From: an uncultured Christensenella sp. | GTDB lineage: Bacteria; Bacillota; Clostridia; Christensenellales; Pumilibacteraceae | DNA: 64,000 bases | Assembly: GCA_910577945.1 (NCBI GenBank) | Contig: CAJTNI010000005.1 | Coordinates: 1-64,000, forward strand | Reading direction: 5' to 3' | Shown here: in pieces, positions 11,974 through 32,040 of the stretch | How the letters are laid out: each line of letters starts with the position of its first letter | Position numbering within the stretch: the stretch's first letter is position 1 | Notes under the pieces: generated by a model | What the model saw: only the letters and a program-made list of their open reading frames with translations | The model's database searches: none | What the model was told of the DNA's origin: nothing | Program-made: the position numbers and the translations under genes

Positions 11974-11996
11974 TGCGCTTTTGCCTCCTACGTCGT

Positions 11997-12134: not shown

Positions 12135-12163
12135 TTGACAAATCGCGGCGCGTGCGCTATAAT
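12135..12163 (+). promoter_or_regulatory. Leaderless promoter of DUF3810 gene
   Basis: TTGACA-17-TATAAT-6-ATG(12170). Confidence 0.55.
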
Positions 12164-12169
12164 TTACGC

Positions 12170-13492
12170 ATGCGTAAAAATCGTATAACGGCGGGAACGC
12201 TCTTAAACGCACGGCGCGCGCGGCTTACGACGCGGTTTTTCGGCTTGCGTTATGCGGCGCGCGTAAAACGCAGGGTTTCGCTTGCGCCCGCCGTGCTTGC
12301 GGCGGTAGCGGCGGGCTTGCTCGTTCCGTTGGTGATAATGAACGCGCTGCGCATAGACGCGGGGCGCGCGGAATGGTGGTCGCGCACCGTCGCGCGCGCG
12401 TACGAGCGAGCGGTGGGCGCGCTTACGTCGTGGCTGCCGATATCGGTGTACGAGCTGTTCGTAGTGATTTTAATCGCCGCGGGGCTGTTTCTTTTCGGGC
12501 GGCTCGTAATCAATCTGTGTCGCGGCGCGTTTATGAGAATAGTGACGGGCGTGCTCGCCGTCGCAGTGGGCGCGGCGTACGTCGGCAACGCGTACATGCT
12601 GTCCATGGGGTTCGGATATTATCGCCGCAAAATGCCGTTGCCGCAAGCGGGCGCGGATTATCGCGTGGAAAAGGTGATAGAGGTTGCCGAGTATTTTTTG
12701 AACGATTACAACGCGCTTGCGCAAAAGCTGCCGCGCGACGAAAACGGGTGCGTGATAAATCCGTACGGGTTCGACGGCACGGCGCGGCGCATCGCCGCCG
12801 AGTACGCCAAGCTGGACGACGGGTATTTCTCGCCGTATACGCCGAACGCGAAGCAGGTGGTCAACAGCTGGCTTATGTCGGACATGCTGATTACGGGCGT
12901 CACGTTTTTGCCGACGGGCGAGGCGAGCTTGAACGTCGGCGCGCCGCCGTCGGTAGTTACTTTCACAACGGCGCACGAGCTGGCGCACACGAAGGGCGTA
13001 CAGCGCGAGGGCGACGCAAACCTCATCGCGCAGTACGTAATGCTTTCGTCCGAGGACGAATACCTGCGGTACTGCGGTTATTACAACGCGTTCGGCGCGG
13101 TGATGTCGGCAATCGTTTTGGCAATGGGCGACGAGCTGCAATACGCAACCGAATACAACAGGCTGGTCGGCGAAATGACCCCGCTGATTTCAGTCGAAAA
13201 ATTGTACGCCAATAAGTATTGGAGCTCGCAGCCCGATATTATCGGAAAGCTCGGCGAGTTCTTTAACGACTTGTATTTAAAGTTCAACGGCGCGAGCAAC
13301 GGCACGGGCAGCTACGGCGACGGCAACCACACGGACGCAATACGCCCGACCGACCCGAGCACGGGCGAGCCGATGACAGACCCCGACACGGGCAAGCCCG
13401 TGTATATCCCCGTGTACTCGACGCTGCAAAAAGTATTCTTTTATCTGTACGAACAAAAAACCGCACGGTTTGGAATAATCAAGGAGTGTTGA
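12170..13492 (+). CDS. DUF3810-like membrane protein with HExxH zinc-metallopeptidase-like motif
   Basis: N-terminal TM segments. TAHELAHTKG carries the HExxH motif. Confidence 0.55.
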   Translation: MRKNRITAGTLLNARRARLTTRFFGLRYAARVKRRVSLAPAVLAAVAAGLLVPLVIMNALRIDAGRAEWWSRTVARAYERAVGALTSWLPISVYELFVVILIAAGLFLFGRLVINLCRGAFMRIVTGVLAVAVGAAYVGNAYMLSMGFGYYRRKMPLPQAGADYRVEKVIEVAEYFLNDYNALAQKLPRDENGCVINPYGFDGTARRIAAEYAKLDDGYFSPYTPNAKQVVNSWLMSDMLITGVTFLPTGEASLNVGAPPSVVTFTTAHELAHTKGVQREGDANLIAQYVMLSSEDEYLRYCGYYNAFGAVMSAIVLAMGDELQYATEYNRLVGEMTPLISVEKLYANKYWSSQPDIIGKLGEFFNDLYLKFNGASNGTGSYGDGNHTDAIRPTDPSTGEPMTDPDTGKPVYIPVYSTLQKVFFYLYEQKTARFGIIKEC

Positions 13493-14901
13493 CAAAACGC
13501 TACGGTTATGATAAACTCAATCGTATGATAAGGGAAGATAATAAATCGCGAGGGGAAACGACTGTATACGAGTACGATACAAACGGGAATATACTGACAA
13601 AAACAGTGTATGCGTTTGCATTGGGCGAAATAGTCGATAGAGCTCCGATAGCGCAAATCCCTTATGCGTATAAGGCGGACGGATGGCGCGACCGCATGGC
13701 GGAGTACAACGGCGAAAAATGCGAGTACGACGCGATAGGCAATCCTACCAAGTACAGAGGCGTAATAACGCAGTTTAAATACTGCGGCAAAATGACCGCG
13801 TACGGCGGCAATACGTACGCATACGACGCAAACGGCGACCGAATCGGAAAAACGGTAAACGGCGTGGAAACGCGGTTTATAACGGCGTCGGGTAAAGTAA
13901 TTCGCAGTATAACAAACGGCGTTGTGACCGATTTCTTTTACGATGCGGGCGGACTTGCGTGCATACGGCATGACGGCTTGGATTACATAGTCCGCAAAAA
14001 CGTGTTTGGCGACGTAACGCATATATACGACAAAGCGGGCAAGCTCGCGGCACGGTACGCGTATGACGTTTGGGGAAAGTGTAAAGTGCTTAACGCAAAC
14101 GGCGTGGAGGATGCCGACGTTCTGTCGATAGGCAACATAAACCCGATACGATACAGAGGGTATTATTTCGATACGGAAAGCAGGCTGTATTACCTGCACG
14201 CACGCTACTATGACCCGGAAACGGGGAGGTTTATATCCGCAGATAACACTCGCTACGTAACCCCCGATGCCGTAAACGGGCTTAATCTGTACGCATACTG
14301 TGCCGATAACCCCGTAATGAACGTAGACCCTAGCGGACATTCGGTGCTGGCGATATTTTTGACGCTGGCGATAGGGGCGTTATTGGGCGGATTGAGCGGC
14401 GGAATAACTTCGCTTGTTTCCGACGGAGATTTTTGGTCGGGTTTTAGTGGAGGCTTGGTTTCGGGCTTAATTTCCACTGCCGGCTTGGGTTTAGCTGTTA
14501 CAATGGGCGGATTGGGGGGAGTTGCTTTATCTGCATTTTTTGGTTTTGGAGCATCGTTCACAGGTAGTATAGTGCAACAGGGATTTGCGAGTAATTGGAC
14601 GAGTTTTGATTTAAAGTCGGCTCGAATTTCAGGATACATAGGCATGACTATGGGAGCAGTTACATATGGACTGACAAACGGTTTTATGCGTGAGGCAGTG
14701 GGGGTGTTTGATAATATATTCGATAAGTCTATCGGCTTTGCGAGAAGATACGCTGAATTTATGTCTTATTCTGTTCCGTCTTTGGTAAGTACGCTGATAT
14801 TTAATTTGCCTGTTACAGTTGCGCAAACGATAATAGAAAGCGTAATCGGGTGCGGAAAATCCGATAAAAGTAAATCTTCATTGGTAGGGGGGATTATTTG
14901 A
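13486..14901 (+). CDS. RHS/YD-repeat protein C-terminal fragment with glycine-zipper membrane toxin tip (orphan polymorphic-toxin module)
   Basis: YD repeats (YEYDTNGNIL, YAYDANGDRIGK). RHS core end motif RYYDPETGRFISAD ... DNPVMNVDPSGH. After that comes a ~180-aa tail with GxxxG motifs and lower GC. The product is only ~470 aa and there is no N-terminal RHS region upstream. Confidence 0.75.
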   Translation: MLTKRYGYDKLNRMIREDNKSRGETTVYEYDTNGNILTKTVYAFALGEIVDRAPIAQIPYAYKADGWRDRMAEYNGEKCEYDAIGNPTKYRGVITQFKYCGKMTAYGGNTYAYDANGDRIGKTVNGVETRFITASGKVIRSITNGVVTDFFYDAGGLACIRHDGLDYIVRKNVFGDVTHIYDKAGKLAARYAYDVWGKCKVLNANGVEDADVLSIGNINPIRYRGYYFDTESRLYYLHARYYDPETGRFISADNTRYVTPDAVNGLNLYAYCADNPVMNVDPSGHSVLAIFLTLAIGALLGGLSGGITSLVSDGDFWSGFSGGLVSGLISTAGLGLAVTMGGLGGVALSAFFGFGASFTGSIVQQGFASNWTSFDLKSARISGYIGMTMGAVTYGLTNGFMREAVGVFDNIFDKSIGFARRYAEFMSYSVPSLVSTLIFNLPVTVAQTIIESVIGCGKSDKSKSSLVGGII

Positions 14902-15389
14902 AAAAAGAATTAAAAGTTGTGCCGTCTATGTTTTGGTTAATCGGCTCAATTGTTCTAATTATAAGTTTGTATTCAATCTTTATATTTTCGTATACATATC
15001 CGCCTGCCCGTCCCGATGAAATCTTTGACCATATATTATTGATATTTTGTACGGGCGTATTACCGACAGTGATATTTGTTACGGCAATACCGCGTGGTAT
15101 ATTTTCGGTAGTTACGATAAGCGAGCGCGGGGTAAGGCGTACGCTGTTTATGGGACGATTCAAGCTTGAAATGAGTTGGGAGGAAATGGCAGAGATGCGG
15201 TATTATCCTCGGCTGCTGCCGTTTGTATTCTTTTCCAAAACCTGCACATTGGACGGTATGTATTACGACAAAATAATAAAAAGGCGGGACGTTATACAGG
15301 TAACGCTGTCAAAGAAAGTATTGCAAGCGATACGGCAGAATACCAAAAAGGAAATAATAAACCTGCCCGAAAGCTATAACGAGCAATAA
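14898..15389 (+). CDS. Putative immunity protein (small 3-TM membrane protein) for the RHS toxin tip
   Basis: Immediately downstream of the RHS tip and overlapping its stop (TGA/ATG). Hydrophobic N-terminus. GC about 40%. Confidence 0.5.
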   Translation: MKKELKVVPSMFWLIGSIVLIISLYSIFIFSYTYPPARPDEIFDHILLIFCTGVLPTVIFVTAIPRGIFSVVTISERGVRRTLFMGRFKLEMSWEEMAEMRYYPRLLPFVFFSKTCTLDGMYYDKIIKRRDVIQVTLSKKVLQAIRQNTKKEIINLPESYNEQ

Positions 15390-15664
15390 AAGACACAAAG
15401 AGCTCTGCACAGTAATGCGTCGGGCTCTTTGCGTATGTCAAAGCTGATATTATACAAATGGTTAAATCACAGGTCTCAAAGTACTGAAATTGGAAAATGT
15501 AGTTTTTAACCGCTAAATTAATAGGAAAAGTGTGTTGGTATTCTAAAAAGTCTGTTATCTACGATTATATTTTCTGCGGAAAATTTATAATTAGTGTTTT
15601 GTTGATAGGCGTTGTGACTATTTGCTACAACTAAAAACAGTCGACACTTTTTGAATACTTTATT

Positions 15665-15710
15665 ATGCAATATTGCATTTATTGACATTTTATTTAAATT
15701 ATGCTAAAAT
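15665..15710 (+). promoter_or_regulatory. Promoter of SIR2-HerA operon with upstream perfect palindrome
   Basis: ATGCAATATTGCAT is a 14-bp perfect palindrome (15665-15678) abutting TTGACA-17-TAAAAT (15682-15710). RBS aaaggag precedes ATG 15770. Confidence 0.5.
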
Positions 15711-15769
15711 ATTAATGTCGCAAATAATTTTTTAATTGGATAGTCATTTCAATTACAAAGGAGATTCTG

Positions 15770-16768
15770 ATGAGAATTTATAACATAGATGAACAAAGGC
15801 AAGATGTGAAATCGTATTTGATTAAATGTTTATCGTCTAACAATATAAGTTTTTTGCTAGGGGCCGGATTTAGTACGCCATTTTTAAGGGTTCTAGGAGG
15901 CTTTGAAGAACGATTAACGGTTGCAATTGAATTAGGAGATGTAAAACAAATAGTGTTATTGGAAAAGGAGTTTTTTAATAATAGTATTTTACCGATTCTT
16001 AATCAAAAAAAATTAGACACTAATATGAAATATCGTGATAGTTTTTTAAATTCTATAAAGAACATTTTAGAAAAACGTCATAGTTCGGTTTTGCATAAAA
16101 TGTTTAATATTTTTACCACGAATTATGATGTGCTTATAGAACAATCTTTGGAACGTAATGCAATTGAATATTCTGATGGATTTTCTGGGCGACTTAATCC
16201 ATTGTATTCAACAACGAATTTTGGAAGAGTTATAAAAAAGACAAGTGCAATAGCTCACAAATCAACAGAAATAGTAACTGCAAATTTGCTAAAACTACAT
16301 GGCTCATTGAATTGGACACAAACAGATGCTGGCATTGCTTTTGAGAATTGTAACCAAAAGATTCAACGTGTAAAAAAGTGCTTACAAAATGACGATGAAT
16401 TTATGTGCACTTATGAAAAAGAGTTCTTAATTATCAACCCTAATAAGGAAAAATTTAACACAACTGTTTTAAATGCGAATTATTATGATCAATTAAGAAT
16501 TTTTGGAAATGAGCTCGAACAAAGGAATGCTCTTTTGTTAGTTTATGGATTTTCGTTTAATGATGAGCACATACGAACAATAGTAGAAAGAGCTTTAATT
16601 AATCCAACATTAACAGTAGTTATATTTGCATTTAGAAAATGGGATGAAGACGCATATAAAGAAAAATTTGACAAATATCACAATGTTGTTGTATTACGTA
16701 ATAGCGGCGAATTCAATATTGAAAGCGTATCGCGGTTTTTTAAGGAGATTGATAATGATATTGAGTGA
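15770..16768 (+). CDS. SIR2-like (SIR2_2/ThsA-type) NAD-dependent domain protein, defense-associated
   Basis: FLLGAGFS (GAGxS), FTTNYDVLIE (TTNYD), KLHGS (catalytic His), LLVYGFSFNDEH. The order and spacing match ThsA-type SIR2 domains. GC about 33%. Confidence 0.8.
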   Translation: MRIYNIDEQRQDVKSYLIKCLSSNNISFLLGAGFSTPFLRVLGGFEERLTVAIELGDVKQIVLLEKEFFNNSILPILNQKKLDTNMKYRDSFLNSIKNILEKRHSSVLHKMFNIFTTNYDVLIEQSLERNAIEYSDGFSGRLNPLYSTTNFGRVIKKTSAIAHKSTEIVTANLLKLHGSLNWTQTDAGIAFENCNQKIQRVKKCLQNDDEFMCTYEKEFLIINPNKEKFNTTVLNANYYDQLRIFGNELEQRNALLLVYGFSFNDEHIRTIVERALINPTLTVVIFAFRKWDEDAYKEKFDKYHNVVVLRNSGEFNIESVSRFFKEIDNDIE

Positions 16769-18524
16769 AGTTTTGAAAATAGGTGAAGTAAGAGAAGTAT
16801 ATGGACATAAAATCAAAGTTGGAATTTATAGCGAAAAAAATGTCGAATACTTAAATTATGACGGAATACCTATTAAAAATGTTGGAATAGGTAGTTTTAT
16901 CATTATCAGAAAAGGATTTTTAAATATAATAGGGAAGGTAGATGGAGAGTTTATAACTGCTACATCTTTAGAAAGTGGCTATGCGGAAAAAGGGCGTGGT
17001 ATAGCAAGAACATTAGATGTGTCTGTTTTAGGACATTTAGAAAACGATCAATTTGTATTTGGTGTTATTGAGCTTCCATTAATAGGTAACTTTGTATACA
17101 TTATAGATGAGAGCCTACAAAAGAATATTTTAGACCATCATTCGCAGTTTGCATTAAATTTAGGTACTTTGATAGAGTATGATAATTATCCATTTAAATT
17201 AGATTTGCAAGAATTGATATGCAGTCATATCGGAATATTTGGTAATACCGGTAGTGGAAAATCAAATACTCTAGCAAAGATATATACTGAACTATTTGAA
17301 AATTATTCTAGCAATCAACAGTTTAAAAAGAATTCAGCCTTTGTTTTTTTTGACTTAAATGGGGAATATAGAAATTCGTTTCCTAATGGTCATTATTATG
17401 AATTGAATTCAATTGAAAATGAAAAATATCCATTAAATGAGCGGTATTTAACAGATATTGAATTTTGGTCGGTTGTTTTACAGGCTTCGGAAAAAACACA
17501 AAAACCGTTCATAAATGAATGTATAAAAAATTATAAAAAATGTAAGCAATCATCAAATTATTTCACGACTCAAAAATTAAGCGAACTTGTTTTTTATAGT
17601 CAAAAGAACTATGGGGATATTAGGGCATTTATAATTCACATATTTACATGCTTAGAACTTGAAGATGAGATCATATCATTTGATGACAATGTAAGCATTG
17701 AGTATAAAAAACTTATAAGCAATACGCGTGGACAATTAGATTATTTGGCGACCTATAATGAATTGTTTGGTGACATGGATGACAAAGTTATTTCTGTAAG
17801 TCATCTAGATGATATCCAAATTTTTTCTTTAATTGTTTATTACACTTATTGTAAAGAATTAAATAAAGGAAAGATTTCGACTCAAAATATTATTCAATTA
17901 TTTAATAGGATGGATAAAATATTATCGGAATTGGGAAATATATTCGAATTCAAGGGTGATTGTCCAAATGAGCATGTTGTTATTATATCATTATTTAATT
18001 TAAATGCAGAATTGAAAAAGTTAGTGACTTATATAATATGTAGAGATAAATATGAGAGTCATAAAAGACATCGTGGAAATGAGCGATTGCAGTCATCCCT
18101 TCATCTAATTATTGAAGAAGCACATAATATCTTATCGTATGAATCCGCGCGCGAGAGTGAGGAGTGGAAGAATACTCGATTAGAAACATTTGAAGAAATT
18201 ATTAAAGAAGGAAGAAAATTCGGAGTTTTTTTGACTATTGCCAGCCAAAGGCCGGCGGATATTTCGGAAACAATTATCTCACAGTTACATAACTTTTTCG
18301 TTCATCGTTTAGTGAATGCTGAAGATTTAAAGCGGATTTATAAGTCTGTTGCATTTTCTGATTCTGTTTCTAATAATATGATTCCAATTTTACCAGCTGG
18401 TGGTTGTTTATTTTCAGGCATTGCGGCTAATTTCCCATTATTAGCAAAAATTGATTGTTTAGAGCAATCTATCGCGCCTAACAGTTCTAACGTTAATTTA
18501 ATAGATATTTGGGGATTAAAATAA
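16755..18524 (+). CDS. HerA/FtsK-like ATPase (DUF87), partner of SIR2
   Basis: Walker A IGIFGNTGSGKSNT, Walker B LIIEEAHNIL, HerA-like FGVFLTIASQRPADI. RBS aaggag lies 7 nt upstream of ATG 16755. It overlaps the SIR2 stop codon (translational coupling). Confidence 0.8.
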   Translation: MILSEVLKIGEVREVYGHKIKVGIYSEKNVEYLNYDGIPIKNVGIGSFIIIRKGFLNIIGKVDGEFITATSLESGYAEKGRGIARTLDVSVLGHLENDQFVFGVIELPLIGNFVYIIDESLQKNILDHHSQFALNLGTLIEYDNYPFKLDLQELICSHIGIFGNTGSGKSNTLAKIYTELFENYSSNQQFKKNSAFVFFDLNGEYRNSFPNGHYYELNSIENEKYPLNERYLTDIEFWSVVLQASEKTQKPFINECIKNYKKCKQSSNYFTTQKLSELVFYSQKNYGDIRAFIIHIFTCLELEDEIISFDDNVSIEYKKLISNTRGQLDYLATYNELFGDMDDKVISVSHLDDIQIFSLIVYYTYCKELNKGKISTQNIIQLFNRMDKILSELGNIFEFKGDCPNEHVVIISLFNLNAELKKLVTYIICRDKYESHKRHRGNERLQSSLHLIIEEAHNILSYESARESEEWKNTRLETFEEIIKEGRKFGVFLTIASQRPADISETIISQLHNFFVHRLVNAEDLKRIYKSVAFSDSVSNNMIPILPAGGCLFSGIAANFPLLAKIDCLEQSIAPNSSNVNLIDIWGLK

Positions 18525-18593
18525 ATTTAATATGGATTTTAACGCAAAAGAATTTATATCACAAAATGGGGGTTGTTCACGGTAAAACGTAAA

Positions 18594-19090
18594 ATGCGCA
18601 TTCTTTTTTCACCGACACTGGTTATTGGTTCGTTAATTGGTTTGTTTTCGTTAGTCGGCATTTATTTACAGTCGTATATGAACCATGTCGAATAGGATTT
18701 AAAGAACATATTGTTATATTTATTATTTGGACATTATGTTGCGTAGGATTAAGTATAGCCGGTGTCGTAACGGGAGCGCGAAAGGTATTTTGCATAATAA
18801 CGATAGATGAGACGGGAATATCTCGGTCGTTTTTAGGTGTGTTTTGCAAGCTGCACATGTCATGGGACAATATAGCGGAGATTTGTTACTTTACAGCGCT
18901 AGCTGAATTTTTGGTATTTTCGAAAAATAAAAAAGTGTCAACAATGACGTATAATAAAATGAGAATGGAGAAAGATGCTATTGAGATGACGATAAGCAGG
19001 CGTAGATACAGAGTAATTAAGCAATATTTACAGCAGCCGATAGTGGGCATGCCCGAAAAAGTCAAAGAACGTTTGGAGCGCGAAAAGTAA
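18594..19090 (+). pseudogene. Frameshifted paralog of the RHS immunity gene
   Basis: Frame 1 gives MRILFSPTLVIGSLIGLFSLVGIYLQSY..*, which aligns with MKKELKVVPSMFWLIGSIVLIISLYSIFIFSY. A second frame continues ...GISRSFLGVFCKLHMSWDNIAEICYF..., which aligns with ...GVRRTLFMGRFKLEMSWEEMAEMRYY... The single frame break is near 18685. Confidence 0.55.
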
Positions 19091-19160
19091 AATAAATGAA
19101 AAATCAAACGACAGTGAAATAATAATTACCAAAAGTTGTTAATCGGCACTTAACCGAGAT

Positions 19161-19192
19161 AGCCCGTATCAATAACGATTCGGGCTTTTTCG
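19161..19192 (+). terminator. Rho-independent terminator
   Basis: agcccg-tatcaataacgatt-cgggct followed by ttttc. Confidence 0.55.
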
Positions 19193-19305
19193 TGCGAAAA
19201 AAGTCGTTCTAAGCGCTTATATAAAAAATTTCTAAAAATATATACTCATTGTAAGTCAATATCCAACAAAAGCGACCGATAGTTCTATATACTTACCGTA
19301 GGCAT

Positions 19306-19755
19306 ATGGAAAATGACGTAGTTAATGGATTTAAAACAACGCTCGCTGAGTTGATGTCGGAAAACGGTCATAGCGCGACCAGCTTGGGGCGCGCTATCGA
19401 CGTGAATATGTTTGTCGTGCGCAAATGGTTGATGCGTGCAAAAGACGTCAAACTGAAATCGCTTATAAAAATAGTAAATTATTTCGGTTGCTCGTTGGAA
19501 TATTTATGCGGTAAGACGGATGAAATTATTACGTACAAGCCGCAGCCGTTGCCGCCTTTTCGCGATTGGCTGAAAACGGTTTTACATAATTGCAATAAAT
19601 CGTCTTACAAGCTGATAAACGACACCAAGATTTCTTCGTCGCAGTACAACAGCTGGTTACACGGCGGAATGCCGATGCTGACTACGCTCGAAACAGTGGC
19701 GGAGTATTTGGACGTCACTCTCGATTATTTGGTGGGGCGTCATGCCGATAAATAG
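19306..19755 (+). CDS. XRE-family transcriptional regulator with two tandem HTH domains
   Basis: Two Cro/C1-type HTH repeats: LAELMSENGHSATSLGRAIDV... and LKTVLHNCNKSSYKLINDTKIS...LDYLVGR. GC about 45%. Confidence 0.65.
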   Translation: MENDVVNGFKTTLAELMSENGHSATSLGRAIDVNMFVVRKWLMRAKDVKLKSLIKIVNYFGCSLEYLCGKTDEIITYKPQPLPPFRDWLKTVLHNCNKSSYKLINDTKISSSQYNSWLHGGMPMLTTLETVAEYLDVTLDYLVGRHADK

Positions 19756-19786
19756 ATAATCGCACACATAATTAAATATTTCTTTT

Positions 19787-20116
19787 GTGTATACGGAGGG
19801 GGAAATGACGGGACAAAAGCAAAACGCATTCGTACACGAGCTTGTGTTGATATTGTATCATTCTAAATTCAGGGATAAATATTTAAGCGCCGAAACGGTT
19901 GCCGGCATTGATAAGTTTATGGATATGTGTCGGGCTAAGGATATGCTGGATAATTCGCAAACCGCATTTGTCGTGGAGCATTATTACGATATACGCAACG
20001 GTTTGACGATAGGCGAACGCCGCGCGCATGTGGGGTTGAGCGACGCCGCGTTGTATCGGTTTAGACTCAAAATAGCAAGCAGTTTAATGAATTGCTTAAA
20101 TACGATAAATACATGA
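19787..20116 (+). CDS. Hypothetical small protein, possible sigma-70 region-4-like HTH (ArpU/Tn916 Orf7-like)
   Basis: The C-terminal segment NGLTIGERRAHVGLSDAALYRFRLKIASS resembles region 4 HTHs. The start may be the ATG at 19805. Confidence 0.35.
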   Translation: MYTEGEMTGQKQNAFVHELVLILYHSKFRDKYLSAETVAGIDKFMDMCRAKDMLDNSQTAFVVEHYYDIRNGLTIGERRAHVGLSDAALYRFRLKIASSLMNCLNTINT

Positions 20117-21243: not shown

Positions 21244-22788
21244 CTACGACGCGCGGTTTATTTTTACGTTTTTGTCTGTTCTCGCGCGTTTTCGCGAAAG
21301 GAACGCGAACCTTTTCGCAGATTTCTTTTCGGACGCGGCGGCTTCGGTATTGCCGATTTTAATAGCGCCGAAGATTACGGCGTTGAGCGTCATGAACGCG
21401 CAGCCGCCCGCCGCGGACACGAACATGGACAGCAGCGCGTACGGAATGAGCGAGGACAAATATTCGCACAGCATGTATGCGGGGAAAAAGCCGGAAAGGC
21501 AGATTACGGCGGGCTTGACGAAGGTCAGCTTGAAGCCCGTGCGGCGCTTGATATCTATTACGTCGAGCACGGACGACACAATCAGGCTGATGCCGAACGC
21601 AATCATAAAAACGTCTATCGTAAAGCGCGAATAAAACGCAAACGAAATCACGTACATTACGCCCGCGCCGATTAGATAGTTTATAAGCGATTTCTTTTCG
21701 AGGTCGAGCGAGTTGAGCATGGACGACGCAATGTTTTCGAACGACAGCGGTATCAACAGCCACGCCGATTTTTTGAGGAATATGCCCGCGTCTGTGTTGT
21801 TGTATATAAACGTGCCTAGGTCGTCGCCGAGCGAGGCGTACACGGGCAGTACGATAGCCGCAATTACGAGCGAGAACGTGAGCGCGTTTTCTATCTGCTT
21901 CTGCATGCTCGCTTTGTCGTTTTCGGCGTACGCCTGCGACAGCGTCGGTATCATGACGAACGCGAGCGAGCCGACGACGGTTATAGGCAGGTACAAAAGC
22001 GGCAGCGACATTCCGACGCACGAGCCGTATATGTACATGGATTGGTCGGTGTTTAGCCCGCTCGACATAAGCAAAAACGGTACTGCGATTGCGATTACGT
22101 AGTTGTTTACGCTCGACGTGGTGCGCGACAGCGTAATGGGCACGGACGAGGATATGAGCGGCTTGAATTGCGTTTTGGGGCTTTTGAGCTTGCGCCCGCC
22201 CGCGAAGTAGAAAATCGCGCACGCGATTGCGGAAATCAGGCACGCGCCCGTCATGGACGTGGCGACCGCTTTGGTCTTGTCGGTGAACAGCGAAAACAGC
22301 ACGACGCATACCGCAATGCGCGCGACTTGCTCGATTAGCTCGACCACGCTCACGGTCGCGAATTTCTTTTCGCCCCACAGCACGCCGCGGAACGCCGAGT
22401 ACACGCCCGAGAACAGCAGCGCGGGCAGCATGAGCAATACCAGCGTCATGGAAAACCCGTCGGCAAACAGCGCGCCGATAGGCTTGTTGAACAGCAGCAC
22501 GACCGCGCAAACGACAATCGCGACTATCGTTTCGAAAATGAGCGCGGCGGAGCACAGCCTCGCGCTGTCGGTGCGGCTTGTCTTTGCCGTCAGCTTGGAC
22601 ACGACGAGCGGCACGCCCGAGGTGAGGAGCGTGAGCAGCACGAAAAAGAACGACAGCGCGACGGAGTACACGCCCATGCCGACCGCGCCTATCTCGCGCG
22701 ACAGATATATCTTGAACAAAAAGCCGAGCACTCGCTCGGCGACCGTAAACGCGGTGAGCGTTATTACGGCACGCGCCATTGATTTCAT
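21244..22788 (-). CDS. MOP-superfamily polysaccharide/lipid II flippase (SpoVB/MurJ-like)
   Basis: 514 aa with ~14 TM helices. The N-terminus ERVLGFLFKIYLSREIGAVGMGVYSVALSFF is typical of polysaccharide biosynthesis proteins. Confidence 0.7.
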   Translation of the reverse strand: MKSMARAVITLTAFTVAERVLGFLFKIYLSREIGAVGMGVYSVALSFFFVLLTLLTSGVPLVVSKLTAKTSRTDSARLCSAALIFETIVAIVVCAVVLLFNKPIGALFADGFSMTLVLLMLPALLFSGVYSAFRGVLWGEKKFATVSVVELIEQVARIAVCVVLFSLFTDKTKAVATSMTGACLISAIACAIFYFAGGRKLKSPKTQFKPLISSSVPITLSRTTSSVNNYVIAIAVPFLLMSSGLNTDQSMYIYGSCVGMSLPLLYLPITVVGSLAFVMIPTLSQAYAENDKASMQKQIENALTFSLVIAAIVLPVYASLGDDLGTFIYNNTDAGIFLKKSAWLLIPLSFENIASSMLNSLDLEKKSLINYLIGAGVMYVISFAFYSRFTIDVFMIAFGISLIVSSVLDVIDIKRRTGFKLTFVKPAVICLSGFFPAYMLCEYLSSLIPYALLSMFVSAAGGCAFMTLNAVIFGAIKIGNTEAAASEKKSAKRFAFLSRKRARTDKNVKINRAS

Positions 22789-22904: not shown

Positions 22905-22933
22905 TTGCTATTCCGCATAAACGGTGATAAAAT
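22905..22933 (+). promoter_or_regulatory. Candidate leaderless promoter, GTG start
   Basis: TTGCTA-17-TAAAAT-6-GTG(22940). Confidence 0.4.
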
Positions 22934-22939
22934 ATATAC

Positions 22940-25390
22940 GTGGAGATATTGCGCAAAAATTCGATATATTCCGCTTGCAAGCGCATATGCGCTGCAATCA
23001 TCGCGGCAGCGCTCGCCGCGACGCTTTTTGCGTGCGCCGCGCCGATAAGTATTTCGTTCTACGCGAGCGAGCTCGTCATGTACGTGGGCGAAACGCGCGA
23101 TATAGCGTACTACGCGCAGCTCACGCCGTCGTACGGCGCAGTCGTCGAATTGGAAGTAGACGGCGAGTGCGTCGAGGCGGACGGAACGCGCGTGACCGCC
23201 GTCGCCGCGGGCGAGGCTGTCGTTACTGCGCGCACCGCTACCGACAGCGCTACAATCAAAATCAAAGCGGAATACCGCGCCGCCAACGGCGTATATTTAA
23301 CAACGGACGGAAAAACTGTGCAAAACGTAAAGGCGGGCGACACGCCAGAGCCCGTGGCGTTTTCCGCCGCTACGGACGACTACGCCGACCCCGACGCGCA
23401 ATACGTTTGGACGGTCAACGGCAGTAAGGTCGGCGAGGGGCGCGGCTTCGAGCTTGCGCCCGAAGCGTACGGCGAGTACGCCGTTACGGTAAGCTGCAAC
23501 GGCGTTGCGCGGACGGAGACAGTGCGAATTTACAGAGAGACGGACGCACGCGCGTATTACGACGGCGCGCTCAATCAGGACGGCGATTATTCCGCGGTGC
23601 GGTTTTTCGCGGTCGAGAGCGCGGACTCGCGCAATCCGCGTTCGGTGTTCGAATGGACGGTAAACGGCGAAGTCGCGAGCCGTTCGCAGATATTCGACTT
23701 TACGCCGACGGCGGCGGGCGAATACGAAATCGCGGTTGCGGTCAACGGTGCGGCGCGGCGGTTCGAGGGCGGCGACAGCGTGCTTGTAACAGCTACGGGA
23801 GTGCGCGCGCCCGACGTGTTCGAGGTGGCGTTCGACGACTGCGACGGCGTGTTTGTGCGCTGGCGCGACGGCATGACGGCGCGCGGCGTTTCCGTAACCG
23901 ACCCGAGCGGCGTTAGGCGCGTGTATGAGCTGACTGACGCGCGCTATGCAGAGCGGTTTGCGGGCGGCGAGTTCGACGCGACGGGGCTTATCGAGGTTTG
24001 TGCGGACAATGCGGGCGTATACAAGCTTCGCATAACGGCGGACGGGCGCGGCGACGAATGCGAATTTATGCAGTACGACAGAACCGCAGAGCCGTATTTG
24101 ACCGAAAACGTATTGTGCCGAAATTCCTTTATATCCGACGCTGCACAAGCCGATGAATGGGTGCGCGAGCTGTACGCTTGCGGCATAACGCGCGCGGAGT
24201 GCTACGTCGCGCGCGGCGTCGAAAATATCGAGTCGGCGATTATCGCGGCGGCGCAAGCGCTGGGATTGACGGCGGAGACGCAGGCGAACGGGGCGGTCGT
24301 ATCGGTAGCGTTCGGCGATTATGCAAACGCGCCCGCGGTCGCTACGCCCGCGCCTGCGATAACTCAAATATATTCGGTGCTGCCGCACATAGAATACGAC
24401 ACGGCGCAAAGACGCAACGCGGCGTACGTTTTGCCGATTGACAGAATAAAAAAATCGGTGCGTGTGGATAATTCCGAGCAGCTGTTGTGCGTCGCGCTCG
24501 GCGGTCGTCGTCCCGCGCCCGAGAGCGGCAGCGCCGCAGGTCGGATATACGGCGTCGCGCGGCGCGTGCTGCTGAGCATTATCGGCGCGGACTACGCGCC
24601 GTCGCAAAAGGCGCATGCGATTTACGATTGGCTGCAATGGAGTACGAAAAAGGCGAACGCAGCGGCGGCGGACGGCAGCGCGAGGTATTTGGAGGGGTTG
24701 TTCGGCGACGGCAAGCCCGAGGACGGCGACGGCATTGCGCCGACGGGCGCGCTCGATTCGCTCGGCATGAGCAAGGCGTTTGCGCTTTTGTGTCGCATGG
24801 AAGGCATAGAATGCGATATCGAACGCGACGCCGACGGGTATTACAATACCGTCGCGCTTGACGGAATAACGTATATAGCGAACGTCTACGGCGGCGAAAG
24901 CTCGGGCGTCGTATCGACGCGGCGCGTCGAGCTGACCTCGCACGCGGGGATTATGCTGCCCTACGACGGCGCGATTTTCGACGACGGCGAGCTGTATTAT
25001 TTGCAAAAGGGCTTTTACGACGGCGAGTATTACGATTACTATATCGACGCCGCGGAGCGCGACGATTACGAGACGTGCAGGGCGGCGGTGTTTGCCGCGT
25101 TTTCGGAGCGGGCGCGCGGGGGCGTGACCGTGCCGAGCGTAGACGGCATCACCACGTTCGAGCACGGCACGCTCGGCGCGGAGTTTATGCTCGGCGGCGT
25201 CGTCACCGACGCGACGGTAAGCGGCGTTTCCGCTATGCTGCGGCGCGCGGCGGTCGAATATTACGAGGTATTTATTAACAAAAACGTGCCCGACGCGGTA
25301 GTCGACGGTATACGCGTGTACCGCGAAGGGAACGTTATGCATATAACCGTAACTGTTCCCGCAGGCTCGGGAAAAATCGAGGGCGTATGA
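22940..25390 (+). CDS. Lipoprotein with BIG2 Ig-like domains and a degenerate (triad-less) transglutaminase-like domain
   Basis: Lipobox LFAC. BIG2-like repeats. KAHAIYDW...GMSKAFALLCRMEGIECD aligns to the downstream paralog but has no Cys, His or Asp at the triad positions. Confidence 0.65.
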   Translation: MEILRKNSIYSACKRICAAIIAAALAATLFACAAPISISFYASELVMYVGETRDIAYYAQLTPSYGAVVELEVDGECVEADGTRVTAVAAGEAVVTARTATDSATIKIKAEYRAANGVYLTTDGKTVQNVKAGDTPEPVAFSAATDDYADPDAQYVWTVNGSKVGEGRGFELAPEAYGEYAVTVSCNGVARTETVRIYRETDARAYYDGALNQDGDYSAVRFFAVESADSRNPRSVFEWTVNGEVASRSQIFDFTPTAAGEYEIAVAVNGAARRFEGGDSVLVTATGVRAPDVFEVAFDDCDGVFVRWRDGMTARGVSVTDPSGVRRVYELTDARYAERFAGGEFDATGLIEVCADNAGVYKLRITADGRGDECEFMQYDRTAEPYLTENVLCRNSFISDAAQADEWVRELYACGITRAECYVARGVENIESAIIAAAQALGLTAETQANGAVVSVAFGDYANAPAVATPAPAITQIYSVLPHIEYDTAQRRNAAYVLPIDRIKKSVRVDNSEQLLCVALGGRRPAPESGSAAGRIYGVARRVLLSIIGADYAPSQKAHAIYDWLQWSTKKANAAAADGSARYLEGLFGDGKPEDGDGIAPTGALDSLGMSKAFALLCRMEGIECDIERDADGYYNTVALDGITYIANVYGGESSGVVSTRRVELTSHAGIMLPYDGAIFDDGELYYLQKGFYDGEYYDYYIDAAERDDYETCRAAVFAAFSERARGGVTVPSVDGITTFEHGTLGAEFMLGGVVTDATVSGVSAMLRRAAVEYYEVFINKNVPDAVVDGIRVYREGNVMHITVTVPAGSGKIEGV

Positions 25391-27954
25391 GAAAAAGATT
25401 TATCAGGCTGATAAGCGTAGTAACGGCGCTGGCTGTGTGCGCGTTTCCCGCGCTGCTGCTGTGCGGCTGTTCGTTCTTTTCGTTGGGCGTATCGGACGGC
25501 GTGGAGTTTACGCGCTCGGCGGTCACAATCGGAGTGGGCGAAACGTACGACCTCGCCGATATAATTTACAGCGAAACGCGCTCGTATAATCTTTCCGTAA
25601 CGTCGGGCGACGCGTACGTGTCGCTGTCCGGCACGCGCGTTCGGGGCGTTGCGGCGGGCACTGCCGTCATTAAGGCGGAAACGTTTATGTACTCGGACAC
25701 CGTGCGGGTGCGCGTGAAGGAGGCTGAGAGCGACGGGCTCGACGTTGTTTACGACGGGGCTTTGACGCAAACCTTGGGGCAAACCGCCGAGGTGTTGTTT
25801 ACGCCCGTCGCTAGCGGTTCGGTAAGTAACGGCACTGTGGATTGGTATATAAACGGCGAAAAGCGCACGACGCTTGCGGCAAGCGACGCGTTCGCTTTCG
25901 AGCCGACGGCGGCGGGCGAGTTTAAGGTGCGCGCGGAGAGCGGCGCGCATGCCGTCGAACACACGGTGCGCGCATACTATGCGACGGACGCGGAGCTCAA
26001 AGTCGAAGGCGCGCTGAATCAACCCTCCGAGCCGTTTGCGAGCGTTACGTTTATTGCCGATATCGAGCGCGACGCGCGCAATCCCGACGGTTATGCGGAG
26101 TGGTTTGTGGACGGCGAAGCGGTAAAGGCGGGCACGGACGCGCGGTTCGTTTATAACCCCGTTGCGGGCGAGCATACCGTTTCTGTACGGGTAAACGGCG
26201 GTAGGATTTATAAGCGGACTGTGCGTTGCGTGGGCAGTATTACGCCCGCCGTGCCGTCGCTCGAATACGATAATCTTTTCCCGCATGCGTATTTAAAGCA
26301 TGACGCAAAGGGGCGCGTCGCGGTGGAAATCACTTCGCCTACGGGCAGCGTTGCCGAATATGCGCAGACCGATTCGGAGTATTCCGCGCTGTTCGGCGAC
26401 GAGGGCTTCGACGTCGGCGGTTTGATATCGCTGTGCGCCGACGGCACGTCGCGGCGCGCGTATCGGTTCAGGGTAAAATCGCTGGGCGACGGCGACGCGT
26501 TGACGGAGAGCGAATACTCGCAGTACTACACGTTTACGCAGCTGCCCGCCGATGTTAAGCCGTATTTGCAGCAGCGGTATATGGATAAGGACTATTATAT
26601 AACGTCCGCATACGAGTTTGTAAACGTATTGGAATATAACGTGCTGTTCCGCAGCAAAACGACGGCTAACCCGCGTATATCGTACGATTGCTATATCGCG
26701 TTCGAAACGGAGCTTACGGCGGAGCAGCTGTGGTACGACGCGTTCGAGCTTGCCGCGACGAGCGGGTATTACAACAATATCAAAACGACGCTCAAAAACA
26801 GCGTGTTTTCGGTGTCGTGCACGGTCGATACGGTCAATTCGCCGTCTACGCAGTCGCGCGACGCGCACGGAGAAAGCGATTACGCCACGCCGCTGCACGC
26901 GGTCGTTCCGCATATCAATTACGACGAGAACAAGTACAGAGCGGCGAACTGTAAGTTCCCCATCGACGGGCTGACGAATACTCAATCCGTCGAGTATACA
27001 GACGAGCTGTACATGACGGCGGAAAACAACGCGCGTCCAGTGCCCGTGCGCGGTTCGGCGGCGGACGCGGTTTATCAAGCGGCGCGCGATATTTTGCGCA
27101 AGATTTGCACTGACGATATGACCGATAAGCAAAAGGCGCACGCGATTTACGATTGGGTTATGTGGCAGGTCACGTACGACACGCCCGCCGCGGACAAAGG
27201 CGGCGAGGACTATTCGGCGTACTACATGGAGGGCGTGTTCGGCGACGGCAAAACCGCAATCGGCGGCAAGGTGTACAATCCGTACGCCGTTTGCGACGGC
27301 ATGAGCAAGGCGTATTCGCTTATGTGCAATATCGAGGGCATACCATGTAAGCGCGTGGGCGGCGTTGCGGGCACGTCGCTCGACAGCGCGGGCGGGCACG
27401 CTTGGAACAAGGTTTTCGTGGAAGGCGGTTGGTACGTAGTCGATTGCACTTGGGGCGATTCTATCGGACAGCTTAATTTGGGCGGGCGCGACGCGGAGTA
27501 CGAGCTCGGATTGCACGACCACCTGTTCCTGACCGACGCGCAAGCCGACTTGACGCATTTCGAGCCGTACGAATCGGGCGACAGCTCCGTAATCTACGCG
27601 CCCGAAACGCCCGCGCGCCCGCTGGACGTTTATCGCGATATGACCTACAACGGCGTCAAAATAAACTGCCGCATTACGTGCGGCGAGAACGCAACGGCAA
27701 GGCTTGCCGAGATAGGCGAAGCGTTTGCGCGCGCGTACGTCAAGCGCGATTCGATAACCGTGCCGGGCGGAGAGAACGGAGGCGTGTACGAGCTCGATTA
27801 CGAGGGCTTGGAAATATGCGTCGGCGACGGAGTTGTGTTATCCGAGCAGAGCGCGCGGTCCGCGCTCGTCGATTCCATACGCGCAGTGCATCGCAACGCC
27901 GACGTGCGGGTGTTCTCTTTCGACGGAACGCTGCTCGTGCTGATGCGCGTTTAA
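25387..27954 (+). CDS. Lipoprotein with BIG2 domains and intact transglutaminase-like cysteine protease domain
   Basis: Lipobox LLCGC. Core AVCDGMSKAYSLMCNIEGIPCKRVGG ... GGHAWNKVFVEGGWYVVDCTWGD (Cys-His-Asp). It overlaps the upstream gene (ATGA). Confidence 0.75.
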   Translation: MRKRFIRLISVVTALAVCAFPALLLCGCSFFSLGVSDGVEFTRSAVTIGVGETYDLADIIYSETRSYNLSVTSGDAYVSLSGTRVRGVAAGTAVIKAETFMYSDTVRVRVKEAESDGLDVVYDGALTQTLGQTAEVLFTPVASGSVSNGTVDWYINGEKRTTLAASDAFAFEPTAAGEFKVRAESGAHAVEHTVRAYYATDAELKVEGALNQPSEPFASVTFIADIERDARNPDGYAEWFVDGEAVKAGTDARFVYNPVAGEHTVSVRVNGGRIYKRTVRCVGSITPAVPSLEYDNLFPHAYLKHDAKGRVAVEITSPTGSVAEYAQTDSEYSALFGDEGFDVGGLISLCADGTSRRAYRFRVKSLGDGDALTESEYSQYYTFTQLPADVKPYLQQRYMDKDYYITSAYEFVNVLEYNVLFRSKTTANPRISYDCYIAFETELTAEQLWYDAFELAATSGYYNNIKTTLKNSVFSVSCTVDTVNSPSTQSRDAHGESDYATPLHAVVPHINYDENKYRAANCKFPIDGLTNTQSVEYTDELYMTAENNARPVPVRGSAADAVYQAARDILRKICTDDMTDKQKAHAIYDWVMWQVTYDTPAADKGGEDYSAYYMEGVFGDGKTAIGGKVYNPYAVCDGMSKAYSLMCNIEGIPCKRVGGVAGTSLDSAGGHAWNKVFVEGGWYVVDCTWGDSIGQLNLGGRDAEYELGLHDHLFLTDAQADLTHFEPYESGDSSVIYAPETPARPLDVYRDMTYNGVKINCRITCGENATARLAEIGEAFARAYVKRDSITVPGGENGGVYELDYEGLEICVGDGVVLSEQSARSALVDSIRAVHRNADVRVFSFDGTLLVLMRV

Positions 27955-28022: not shown

Positions 28023-28787
28023 TTAAAGCGCGGAGAACGCCGCGAAAAATTCTTTCTCGGGCGCGCGCCAGCACGTTTCGTCGTGAACGCCCTCGTTGTT
28101 TACGGTCAGCGTCAGGTTTTTCGCGCCGCCGCGGCGCAACGCGTCCGTAAGCATGAACGCCGATTGCACGTAGAGCTGCGGCACGGCTTTTATAAGCTCG
28201 GGGTCGTCGAGCTCGCCCGATAGCTCGCTGCCGCCGCAGTACGCTTGATAGTACGCGTCGTCGTCGAGGCTGAGCGCGTCGAAAAACTTTTCGTACGCGG
28301 CGTGGCAAATAAACAGCGGGGCGGAAAACAATCCGTACGCGATAAACTTGTCGGGCTTGCGCGCGGCAAAACCGAGCGTGGCGAGCGCGCCCGCCGACGA
28401 GCCCAGCATCGCGTACTTTTTAAACCCGAACCGTTTATCGAGATACGGCAGCAGCATTTCTTCCAAATAGTCGAAATATTCGGCGGCTTTTCCGCCCGTA
28501 CCTCCGCAGGACGGCTTGTACTCGTCGAGCTCTATGGGAAAGGGCAGGTAGTCGTCCATTCGCGTCGGAGTGCAATCAACGCCGATAATCGCCGTGTTTT
28601 TTACGCCCGCGCTTTTGAGCGCGTCGAGCGCGCGCCAGCTCTTTTTGTAGGCGGCGTCCTCGTCGTAAAACACGTTTTGACCGTCGTGCATGATAATAGC
28701 GCGGTCGGCGCTTTTGGGCGCGTAAATGCGCACCGTGCGCGCGTAACCGTTTTTGGAAATTACGGCTATTTCGTATTTGCGTTTCAT
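28023..28787 (-). CDS. Esterase (alpha/beta hydrolase, esterase D-like family)
   Basis: YAMLGSSAGALATL carries the GxSxG motif. The N-terminus ARTVRIYAPKS...IIMHDGQNVF is esterase-like. Confidence 0.7.
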   Translation of the reverse strand: MKRKYEIAVISKNGYARTVRIYAPKSADRAIIMHDGQNVFYDEDAAYKKSWRALDALKSAGVKNTAIIGVDCTPTRMDDYLPFPIELDEYKPSCGGTGGKAAEYFDYLEEMLLPYLDKRFGFKKYAMLGSSAGALATLGFAARKPDKFIAYGLFSAPLFICHAAYEKFFDALSLDDDAYYQAYCGGSELSGELDDPELIKAVPQLYVQSAFMLTDALRRGGAKNLTLTVNNEGVHDETCWRAPEKEFFAAFSAL

Positions 28788-30584: not shown

Positions 30585-30750
30585 ATATTCGAATATCGTT
30601 ATTATGAATCGTGTGGATTACGGGTACAGGCGTAAGCGCGGTGCTAATCCGCGTATGCGCTCGGCTAATGCGGTATATCCGCAAATCGTATGTGTTTTAT
30701 GGCGTTTGGGTCGAATAGTTTCGCGGTTATTCGACATACTACAATACGGA

Positions 30751-32040
30751 ATGAATGCGAGTATGTGGAGTATAATACTGTGCGCGGCGGCAGTATGCGC
30801 GTTTCCGTGCGGCATACATAAGGCGGAAACACATGTCGCGTCGCAGTGCGCGCCCTGCGCGGCGGTTGCGGCGCAGCCCGAGGCGGACGGCGGCGAGCCC
30901 GAGCGCGTCGCTCGAATAACCGTCGACGCAAAGGGTAAGCGGTTTACTTATACAGACGACAGGATAATTCCGTCCGATTTTACCGTAGCCGAATATATCG
31001 AAACGCATAAAATAAACGCGCCGCTTTCCGAAAAGCTGGAATTTGCGGATAGCCTTCTCAAAAAGGGCGCAAGCTACAAAACCGCGCTCGGCGTGTGCTT
31101 TCCTCGACTGTCGGCGACCGTGGACAAGGTGGCGGCGCAGTTGTACGTGCCCGCCGTGAACGCCGAGGTCGTTTATAAAAACGGCATATATTCGGTAACC
31201 GACGACCGCGCGGGGGCGACGCTCGACGAGAATAAGCTGTACGCGGGCATATACTATTGCTTCAAGTTCGGCGGCGAAAACATAAGCGCGACGGCGGTGC
31301 GCGTCAACCCCGAAATCACGAGCGCGGCGCTCAAAAGCAATCTCGTGCTGCGTTCTGCGTATACGACCGATTTTCACACGTCCACGGCGGATAGGGCGCA
31401 CAACGTTACGCTCGCGCTGCGCAAGTTCGACGGGTTTAGAATACGCGCGGGCGAAACCGTGTCGTTCAATCGAGTAGTGGGCGCGCGCACCGAGGAGAAC
31501 GGCTTTAAAAAAGCCAAAATCATAGTGGACGGCAAATATACCGACGGCGTAGGCGGCGGCGTGTGTCAAGCGTCGACTGCGGTTTATAACGCGGCGCTTT
31601 TGGCGGGGCTCAAATGCAGCGCCAACGCGCATTCCATTTGCCCGTCGTACTGCCCCGCAGGGCTCGACGCCATGATAAGCACGGCGAGCGACCTCACTAT
31701 AACAAATACGACCGCGCACGACGTGTTCGTTTCGGTTAAATGCTCGGGCGGCAAAGCCACCGTCAAAATGATAGGCGAGCGCAACGAGTACGAAATCGTG
31801 CCCGAAAGCGTAACCGTCAATACGTTTCCGTTCGCCGACGTGGAAATCGTAGACAGGGAACGTAAGTTTTTCGGCGCGGACGCAGTGTCGGGCGACAGAC
31901 TGCTTGTGTCGCTCGGCAAGGACGGCATAATCAGCGAAACGTATCTTAAATATTACAAGGACGGCAAATTCGTTAAGCGCGTAAAGATACGCGGCAACGA
32001 ATACAAATCGTCGCCGCAAATCGTAGCCGTCGCGCCGTAA
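30751..32040 (+). CDS. VanW family protein with C-terminal G5-like domain
   Basis: The VanW core contains GGGVCQASTAVYNAALLAGL. The N-terminal signal peptide is MNASMWSIILCAAAVCAF. The start at 30751 follows TACAAT-5-ATG; the ORF track extends upstream to 30604. Confidence 0.65.
   Translation: MNASMWSIILCAAAVCAFPCGIHKAETHVASQCAPCAAVAAQPEADGGEPERVARITVDAKGKRFTYTDDRIIPSDFTVAEYIETHKINAPLSEKLEFADSLLKKGASYKTALGVCFPRLSATVDKVAAQLYVPAVNAEVVYKNGIYSVTDDRAGATLDENKLYAGIYYCFKFGGENISATAVRVNPEITSAALKSNLVLRSAYTTDFHTSTADRAHNVTLALRKFDGFRIRAGETVSFNRVVGARTEENGFKKAKIIVDGKYTDGVGGGVCQASTAVYNAALLAGLKCSANAHSICPSYCPAGLDAMISTASDLTITNTTAHDVFVSVKCSGGKATVKMIGERNEYEIVPESVTVNTFPFADVEIVDRERKFFGADAVSGDRLLVSLGKDGIISETYLKYYKDGKFVKRVKIRGNEYKSSPQIVAVAP

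Follow-up and report, generated by a model that had tools for sequence, protein, structure and literature searches.

A degenerate transglutaminase-like lipoprotein encoded in tandem with a triad-intact paralog in Pumilibacteraceae

The A/B tandem and its closest described relatives

Several eukaryotic proteins, including protein 4.2/EPB42, XPC/Rad4, FBXO21, menin and DRC7, have the transglutaminase fold without its catalytic residues and serve binding or scaffold roles (PMC10318531). In Clostridioides difficile, a protease, CspB, is encoded with the pseudoproteases CspA and CspC, the dead copies having regulatory or sensing functions (PMC7200643, PMC12880746). Here we analyse a tandem of two genes, which we call A and B, in a 64,000-nucleotide stretch of DNA from an uncultured Christensenella sp. 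of the family Pumilibacteraceae (GenBank assembly GCA_910577945.1, contig CAJTNI010000005.1, positions 1 to 64,000 of the forward strand; hereafter the window). Both genes encode predicted lipoproteins with an immunoglobulin (Ig)-like stalk and a C-terminal transglutaminase-like domain, and the catalytic triad is intact in B and degenerate in A. Like the dead eukaryotic proteins, A has kept the fold and lost the catalytic residues; those proteins differ in being intracellular, in having no adjacent live paralog and in not being close relatives of A. The Csp proteins resemble the A/B pair in logic only, as dead paralogs encoded with an active enzyme in Clostridia, since they have a subtilisin fold, are spore proteins and are not homologous to A or B.

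Among solved structures, Streptococcus pyogenes TglA (PDB 9CRN, 'transglutaminase-like domain-containing protein') is the nearest relative and was matched by the B family profile with an E-value of 5.7e-14. The TglA motifs C..HAWN..DvTWGD align with those of B, and TglA keeps the triad, unlike A; it is a single module of 361-379 residues without an Ig-like stalk, at 13-16% identity. Other solved bacterial structures are extracytoplasmic like A and B, namely 4XZ7 (described as 'a TGase'), 3ISR (a putative cysteine protease of Cytophaga), the periplasmic domain of Pseudomonas aeruginosa TgpA (6G49/6G4H), LapG, and the pseudomurein endoisopeptidases PeiW and PeiP. Their similarity to A and B is at the level of the fold (7-19% identity), they have different accessory domains, and no dead/live tandem is described among them. 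Several of these enzymes (LapG, PeiW, TgpA) act on envelope components. The Mycoplasma lipoprotein family MAG6410 (NF045980) also has a transglutaminase-related core and is matched by the core of B (E 1.3e-14), although this match is partial, covering positions 152-266 of 622 in the profile; membership was rejected for both proteins because B scored 53.6 bits against a cutoff of 450 and A gave no match. A bacterial dead/live tandem of transglutaminase-like lipoproteins was not found described in the literature that we searched, the coverage of which was incomplete.

A retained fold with a degenerate active site

Full-length comparison of the two proteins with BLASTP gave 31% identity over 704 residues (E 1e-70), and alignment of the A-family and B-family profiles with hhalign gave a probability of 100% and an E-value of 3e-107 over 759 aligned columns. 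With the motifs QKAHAIYDW and GMSKAFALLCRMEGIEC both present in A, the block-for-block paralogy proposed in the initial annotation of this DNA is borne out. The same annotation had described an intact triad in the downstream copy, and B indeed contains AVCDGMSKAY, GGHAWN and VVDCTWGD, with the codons of Cys636, His671 and Asp686 checked individually. In A these columns hold Ser607, Gly633 (or a gap) and Asn648, so that the proposed replacements of Cys by Ser and of Asp by Asn stand, whereas the proposed replacement of His by Tyr is one residue off: the His column of the window copy holds Gly633, followed by Tyr634 and Tyr635, and Tyr occupies that column in many orthologs.

The generality of this pattern was assessed in several sequence sets. 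Homology searches recovered 17 A orthologs (37-97% identity) and 27 B orthologs (44-99% identity), a genome scan with one genome per species gave 79 loci, and a hidden Markov model search of 1.84 billion cluster representatives, with 1,640 relatives at E<=1e-30, yielded about 50 A-type clusters with the same residue pattern. The genome scan was seeded with CDG[MI]SKAY and GGHAWNKV and is thus biased towards live copies, missing any dead copies that lie elsewhere in genomes counted as single-copy; a search with the combined A and B alignment returned only the A family and unrelated Ig-repeat proteins and added no outgroups. The B triad does not vary among the 27 B sequences aligned and is also intact in 49 of 51 more distant relatives, and C-H-D stands at the triad columns of 79 of the 82 B and distant-relative sequences, one exception being a truncated open reading frame (ORF). 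Cys and His, in contrast, are absent from these columns in all 27 genome-derived A copies and in the roughly 50 A cluster representatives. Among the genome-derived copies the Cys column holds Ser in 21, Asp in five and Arg in one; Ser occupies it in approximately 78% of A copies, and across copies and representatives together the replacements are Ser, Asp, Glu, Ala or Arg. The His column is variable or deleted in A orthologs. The Asp is kept in the genome-derived A copies except that of the window, its change to Asn being peculiar to the window copy and a 97%-identical relative (P0001). By the Cys-His-Asp test for active transglutaminase-like cysteine enzymes B thus qualifies and A does not, and B is presumptively an extracytoplasmic cysteine enzyme (peptidase, amidase or transglutaminase).

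The changes in A extend well past the triad. Residues that are invariant in B and the outgroups but replaced in A include V635, D637, S640, R656, G659, A661, A672, W673, T688, W689, Y597, M578 and M592 (B numbering), and residues invariant in A but absent from B are R502, K690, E485, E706, Y552, Q566 and G415. No new conserved Cys, His or Ser was found in the A family alignment, and the invariant Cys and His residues that A does have (C618, H559 and a His at A661/668) are not triad residues and occur in B as well. These comparisons indicate that the active-site shell of A is remodelled beyond the lost Cys and His.

This divergence is reflected in family detection. B matches the Pfam transglutaminase core family PF01841 (clan Peptidase_CA) with 54.1 bits against a cutoff of 23 (E 2.1e-14), as do all 26 B-family members scanned, and the precomputed assignments list PF01841 for all 27 B orthologs and for none of the 17 A orthologs. 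The window copy of A has no PF01841 match at E<=1, of the 17 A-family members scanned no more than 3 do so at E<=0.01, and a search of the PDB by sequence with the A-family profile found no transglutaminase chain. The homology of A to the transglutaminase-like superfamily is therefore established only through B, by the BLASTP and hhalign paralogy. Predicted structures agree with it. The C-terminal halves of A and B were modelled by AlphaFold2 with a 44-sequence alignment, giving a mean predicted local distance difference test (pLDDT) score of 88.9 and a predicted template modelling (pTM) score of 0.91 for A (442 aa) and 89.3 and 0.91 for B (476 aa). Structure matches to transglutaminase-fold proteins include 4xz7, 3isr, 3kd4, LapG, factor XIII, TG2/TG3, PNGase, arylamine N-acetyltransferases, PeiW, protein 4.2 and Rad4/XPC; a Foldseek search with the B model likewise returned transglutaminase-fold matches. 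The alpha+beta papain-like core was superposable on solved transglutaminase-fold structures, and the models indicate that A keeps the transglutaminase fold. We accordingly regard B as a member of PF01841 and A as a homolog that, judged from its sequence, is best called a transglutaminase-like pseudoenzyme.

Both proteins are predicted to be bacterial lipoproteins and substrates of signal peptidase II. At the level of the pattern, the N-termini of A (...AATLFAC32) and B (...ALLLCGC28) fit the lipobox [LVI]-x-[GAS]-C, with Cys32 conserved in at least 90% of A-family members and Gly27-Cys28 invariant across 27 B-family sequences. The shared architecture described initially, a lipobox, a stalk of Big_2 repeats and a C-terminal transglutaminase-like domain, holds for its two ends and needs revision in the middle: only 10 of the 43 members of the family had a Big_2 match in Pfam, the window copy of A gave only PKD_3, PKD and BiPBP_C Ig-like matches, and its profile match in the PDB, the cell surface protein 7biz, is Ig-like. 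These domain matches fit a stalk made of a single Big_2-like domain and then PKD/BiPBP_C-like domains, not one of Big_2 repeats.

A remains constrained despite the loss of its catalytic residues. The ratio of nonsynonymous to synonymous substitution rates (dN/dS) was computed by NG86 in close genome pairs. Over the whole gene it is 0.19-0.25 in A and 0.14-0.22 in B; over the transglutaminase-like core it is 0.17-0.26 and 0.11-0.18, respectively. No other region of A is conserved as well as the degenerate core (mean pairwise identity 0.50). A does diverge faster than B, with a mean pairwise identity of 0.39 against 0.49 and the lower value in 349 of 351 genome pairs, and in neighbour-joining (NJ) trees its stem and crown branches are longer than those of B, the stem measuring 0.57 versus 0.19 substitutions per site. 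Taken together, these rates indicate that A is under purifying selection, also within the dead core. Homology, lost catalytic residues and purifying selection, the sequence hallmarks of a pseudoenzyme, are all found in A. The alignment did not place an intact triad in A and its fold is not unrelated to that of transglutaminases, the two outcomes that the initial annotation had named as contrary to its claim of a retained, catalytically dead paralog; with Cys and His loss universal, the fold kept, selection purifying and the pair present at 26 of 26 loci, that claim is supported.

Linkage, origin and possible roles of A

Loci were informative if they held a B ortholog (44-54% identity) and extended far enough upstream; at each of the 26, A lies directly upstream of B on the same strand, so that the pair is conserved among relatives. 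The gap between the A stop and the B start ranges from -20 to +47 nt in the 22 loci measured, with an overlap of 1 or 4 nt in nine of them. Same strand, minimal or negative spacing and conserved order all characterise A-B, and the two genes are predicted to be co-transcribed. Their ORFs in the window lie on the + strand at the coordinates originally given and share an ATGA stop/start overlap; together with the GAGGG just 5' of it, this overlap indicates that A and B are probably coupled in translation, as the initial annotation had stated. The gene order in the loci that carry the pair (the pair clade) is a tautomerase gene, an ECF-S component, a divergently transcribed MOP-family flippase, A, B, a convergent esterase gene, the CCA-adding enzyme and a VanW/PG_binding_4 protein. 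Pumilibacter and other distant relatives have one triad-intact gene in the same slot, between the flippase and CCA genes, and the flippase is a conserved neighbour of the transglutaminase-like gene or genes, single-copy relatives included. Its score against the SpoVB model TIGR02900 of NCBIfam is 214 bits, below the equivalog cutoff of 372 (E 3.5e-63), and we therefore treat it as a generic MurJ/SpoVB-type MOP flippase.

Because the paralogs share one syntenic slot that holds a single intact gene in relatives, we infer that the pair arose by local tandem duplication. All 100 NJ bootstraps recovered A as one monophyletic group and B as another, and in a first NJ tree the two were sister clades derived from single-copy outgroups. 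Two more tandems with a dead upstream and a live downstream copy were found outside the A clade, at loci that we label L075 and L080. When L080 was added to the tree, monophyly of A+B received 55% bootstrap support, grouping of the upstream L080 copy with A 47% and a sister relationship of the L080 pair 42%; because support for the deep nodes is low, we claim only the monophyly of A and of B and not the number or timing of duplications. The L075 pair, from an anaerobic-digester Clostridiales metagenome-assembled genome, is 27% identical (E 3e-40), forms sisters in 74% of bootstraps, and has an upstream copy reading ALSAGVAK / QSWNK / IDASKAR. In L080 (tandem at 6001..11298) the dead protein, P0099, has 825 aa with A/W/D at the triad columns and reads NASALAYAK / DWAWNM / FDAALSD, and the live copy of 893 aa reads VCDGMSKA / GGHAWV / CDPTWGD. 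The syntenic context of L080 is the same, with YitT/DUF2179 and peptidase M48 genes between the flippase and the dead copy.

The interpretation that we favour, and hold to be moderately probable, is that A is a pseudoenzyme that acts jointly with B at the outer surface of the cytoplasmic membrane. B would be an extracytoplasmic cysteine enzyme held off the membrane by its Ig-like stalk, and A, made alongside B in similar amounts, would be a heteromeric, roughly equimolar, non-catalytic partner that binds or presents substrate, or that regulates or positions B. Strict co-occurrence, tight coupling and correlated evolutionary distances make such a partner or regulatory role plausible; with the flippase and CCA genes taken into account, A and B still show covarying pairwise distances (partial r 0.63, permutation p 0.0005). 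Lipoprotein anchoring and the conserved synteny with a MurJ/SpoVB-type flippase point, weakly, to a target in the cell envelope, which could be a peptidoglycan peptide, a wall polymer or a surface protein. Several considerations weigh against this partnership. A partial correlation of similar size links the flippase and CCA genes (0.66), and the A-B distance correlation may therefore reflect only a shared rate class of surface proteins, and synteny that is conserved within one bacterial family is weak evidence of a functional link to the flippase. The partnership is proposed from sequence comparison, the term 'partner' is so far a biochemically loose one, and no function for the closest solved relative was found in the searchable literature, where matches to 'TglA' concern an unrelated 3-thiaglutamate peptide. 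Finally, the commonest substitute for Cys is Ser, which could act as a nucleophile, yet the position is not conserved and the His is absent.

In another reading A acts alone, as a neofunctionalised binder (an adhesin, a lectin-like protein or a receptor lipoprotein) whose former cleft binds a ligand independently of B, the tandem being a relic of duplication. In its favour, A has invariant residues of its own (R502, K690, E485, E706, Y552, Q566 and G415), the long and accelerated stem branch (0.57 vs 0.19) is consistent with a change of function, and the dead eukaryotic transglutaminase-fold proteins are binders or scaffolds (PMC10318531). The strict co-occurrence of A and B, their conserved order in 26 of 26 loci with stop/start overlap, the recurrence of a dead-upstream/live-downstream layout in L075 and L080 and the covariation of distances all count against this reading, and we consider a stand-alone binder unlikely, although co-occurrence, recurrence and covariation are compatible with an independent function of A too. 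Far less credit goes to A as an enzyme with a different apparatus, such as a Ser607 nucleophile or migrated catalytic residues. Ser does occupy the Cys column of most A copies, Asp is kept in nearly all A orthologs, and active-site migration is documented in the papain-like superfamily (PMC10318531); with Ser, Asp, Arg, Glu or Ala in that column there is nevertheless no conserved nucleophile, the His column is variable or deleted, no Cys, His or Ser is invariant in A specifically, and the window copy lacks the Asp as well (Asn648). An alternative catalytic site was rejected on these grounds as very unlikely. The view of A as a functionless gene in decay, or as an artefact of annotation, can be regarded as effectively refuted by the selection data. 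Its faster evolution relative to B and the disagreement of public gene calls over its start (770 or 813 aa) could suggest decay, but an intact ORF of about 800 aa is present in each of 26 species-level genomes and in about 50 cluster representatives, at identities as low as 37%, dN/dS is approximately 0.2 in all regions, the lipobox is conserved and the fold is predicted with confidence; from the dN/dS values, the conserved core and the integrity of the ORF we conclude that A is not a decaying pseudogene.

The initial annotation had also raised a role in spore-coat cross-linking, and a pair acting on spore coat or cortex during sporulation would fit the best NCBIfam match of the divergent flippase, SpoVB, and the cross-linking of Bacillus spore coats by transglutaminases (PMC10318531). 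This idea fared poorly and now seems highly improbable: the flippase is not a SpoVB equivalog by its score, both proteins carry lipoprotein signal peptides and are predicted to be exported, and neither A nor B matched the Bacillus spore-coat Tgl family PF20085 at E<=1, on which basis Tgl membership was rejected. MOP-family flippases of the MurJ/SpoVB type have a place in vegetative wall synthesis too. Sporulation goes unmentioned in the description of the host family, and no genome-wide survey of sporulation genes was made. At the other extreme, the partnership favoured above can be extended to an obligate heteromeric, flippase-linked machine for envelope remodelling in which A would gate or target B, by analogy with the degenerate LytM factors that control amidases, and which would have arisen convergently at least twice in Clostridia (in the A/B clade, in L075 and possibly in L080). 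Such a machine would act jointly with the adjacent MurJ/SpoVB-type flippase in the very small-celled Pumilibacteraceae; we offer this extension as speculative and rather improbable.

Gene organization, the surrounding window and significance

The coordinates of A, B, their parts and other features of the window are collected in Table 1. The start of A is ambiguous (22940..22951), the candidates being GTG 22940, TTG 22949, which is preceded by GGAG and gives the 813-aa form of public gene calls, and an internal ATG. The last corresponds to the 770-aa calls, which lack the signal peptide and would mislead, as A would appear cytoplasmic; the conservation of the lipobox Cys32 across orthologs favours the long form. 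The divergent intergenic region between the flippase and A is AT-rich, spans 150 bp and contains promoter-like hexamers.

Table 1. Features of the A/B locus and of the low-GC island, in window coordinates
Feature	Coordinates	Strand	Details
Gene A	22940..25390	+	816-aa lipoprotein, GTG start; catalytically dead transglutaminase-like paralog (predicted); orthologs 37-97% identical, all intact
Gene A signal peptide, lipobox L-F-A-C	22940..23035	+	Cys32 codon 23033..23035
Gene A Ig-like stalk	23048..24061	+	Big_2-like N-terminal domain, then PKD/PKD_3/BiPBP_C-like domains, then further beta region
Gene A C-terminal module, 442 aa	24062..25387	+	Small alpha/beta subdomain followed by the transglutaminase-like fold and then a C-terminal alpha/beta subdomain
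Gene A degenerate transglutaminase-like core, residues 535-673	24542..24958	+	Ser607 24758..24760, Gly633 24836..24838, Asn648 24881..24883
A stop/B start overlap ATGA, 4 nt	25387..25390	+	GAGGG just 5'
Gene B	25387..27954	+	855-aa lipoprotein, ATG start; intact transglutaminase-like (papain-fold) domain
Gene B signal peptide, lipobox L-C-G-C	25387..25470	+	Cys28 codon 25468..25470
Gene B PF01841 Transglut_core match, residues 569-687	27091..27447	+	Pfam E 2.1e-14
Gene B catalytic codons	Cys636 27292..27294, His671 27397..27399, Asp686 27442..27444	+	Codons checked
Promoter-like site TTGCTA, 17 nt, TG-TAAAAT	22905..22933	+	Consensus scan only, weak evidence
MOP-family flippase (Polysacc_synt/MurJ/SpoVB-like)	21244..22788	-	Pfam; transcribed divergently from A
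RHS-repeat protein fragment	13486..14901		Low-GC island
Small ORF	14898..15389		Low-GC island
SIR2-like gene	15770..16768		Low-GC island; PADLOC
HerA/DUF87 ATPase	16626..18524		Low-GC island; PADLOC
Cro/C1 helix-turn-helix gene	19306..19755		Low-GC island

Downstream of the tandem, a PF00756 'putative esterase' gene (28023..28787, minus strand) converges on B. It lies directly downstream of B in every pair-clade locus with downstream sequence (L001-L028) and in L080 and was not detected in any single-copy outgroup locus, so that its presence tracks the dead/live pair. Two genes downstream, a VanW-domain protein (30604..32040) has a PG_binding_4 match just below the cutoff (20.9 vs 22.1 bits) and is syntenic in the pair clade; many single-copy relatives, but not every one, share this synteny. 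The L075 tandem (3760..12025) encodes larger lipoproteins of 1058 and 1139 aa and is followed by a 282-aa protein without a Pfam match and a PIG-L family de-N-acetylase, a neighbour that may hint at glycan or cell-wall modification.

The third transglutaminase-like gene that had been noticed in the window, at 8060..8782, lies on the minus strand and matches PF01841 (E 1.8e-13). It encodes 240 aa with Cys71 (GFGQCNTKA) and His119 (LHTWAEV) and no signal peptide; its product is presumably cytoplasmic and active and, beyond the superfamily, is unrelated to the A/B pair. Elsewhere, a low-GC island (13486..20116; GC 0.29-0.40 against about 0.55 in the rest of the window) lies between a DUF3810 gene (12152..13492) and the tautomerase gene, and looks like an inserted variable region because those two genes are directly adjacent in L080. 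Its SIR2-like and HerA/DUF87 genes make up an anti-phage defence pair of the SIR2-HerA kind (PADLOC E 2e-64 and 4.8e-136).

In summary, A/B is a bacterial variant of the well-known theme of pseudoenzyme paralogs, and it is neither a new kind of system nor one that opens a long-standing question. Its interest lies in pseudoenzyme partners being a recurring means of controlling dangerous extracytoplasmic hydrolases, and is heightened by the recurrence of the dead/live pattern in separate lineages and by the present lack of annotation of the A subfamily. That subfamily (about 50 clusters at 50% identity) is 'hypothetical' in public databases and carries no transglutaminase annotation there, since the domain now escapes Pfam. 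With the ancestor-like single copy of Pumilibacter, the pair of the Anaerocaecibacter clade and similar pairs in two further lineages, the family offers a natural experiment in how a papain-fold enzyme becomes a non-catalytic partner. The host lineage, Pumilibacteraceae (GTDB f__CAG-552), comprises small, strictly anaerobic bacteria of the mouse gut, and the A/B pair is encoded by a cultured mouse-gut isolate, Anaerocaecibacter muris CLA-AA-M11 (L015, at 5440..7965 and 7863..10571). Study of A/B in this organism could reveal the role of the abundant 'transglutaminase domain-containing' surface proteins of gut Clostridia.

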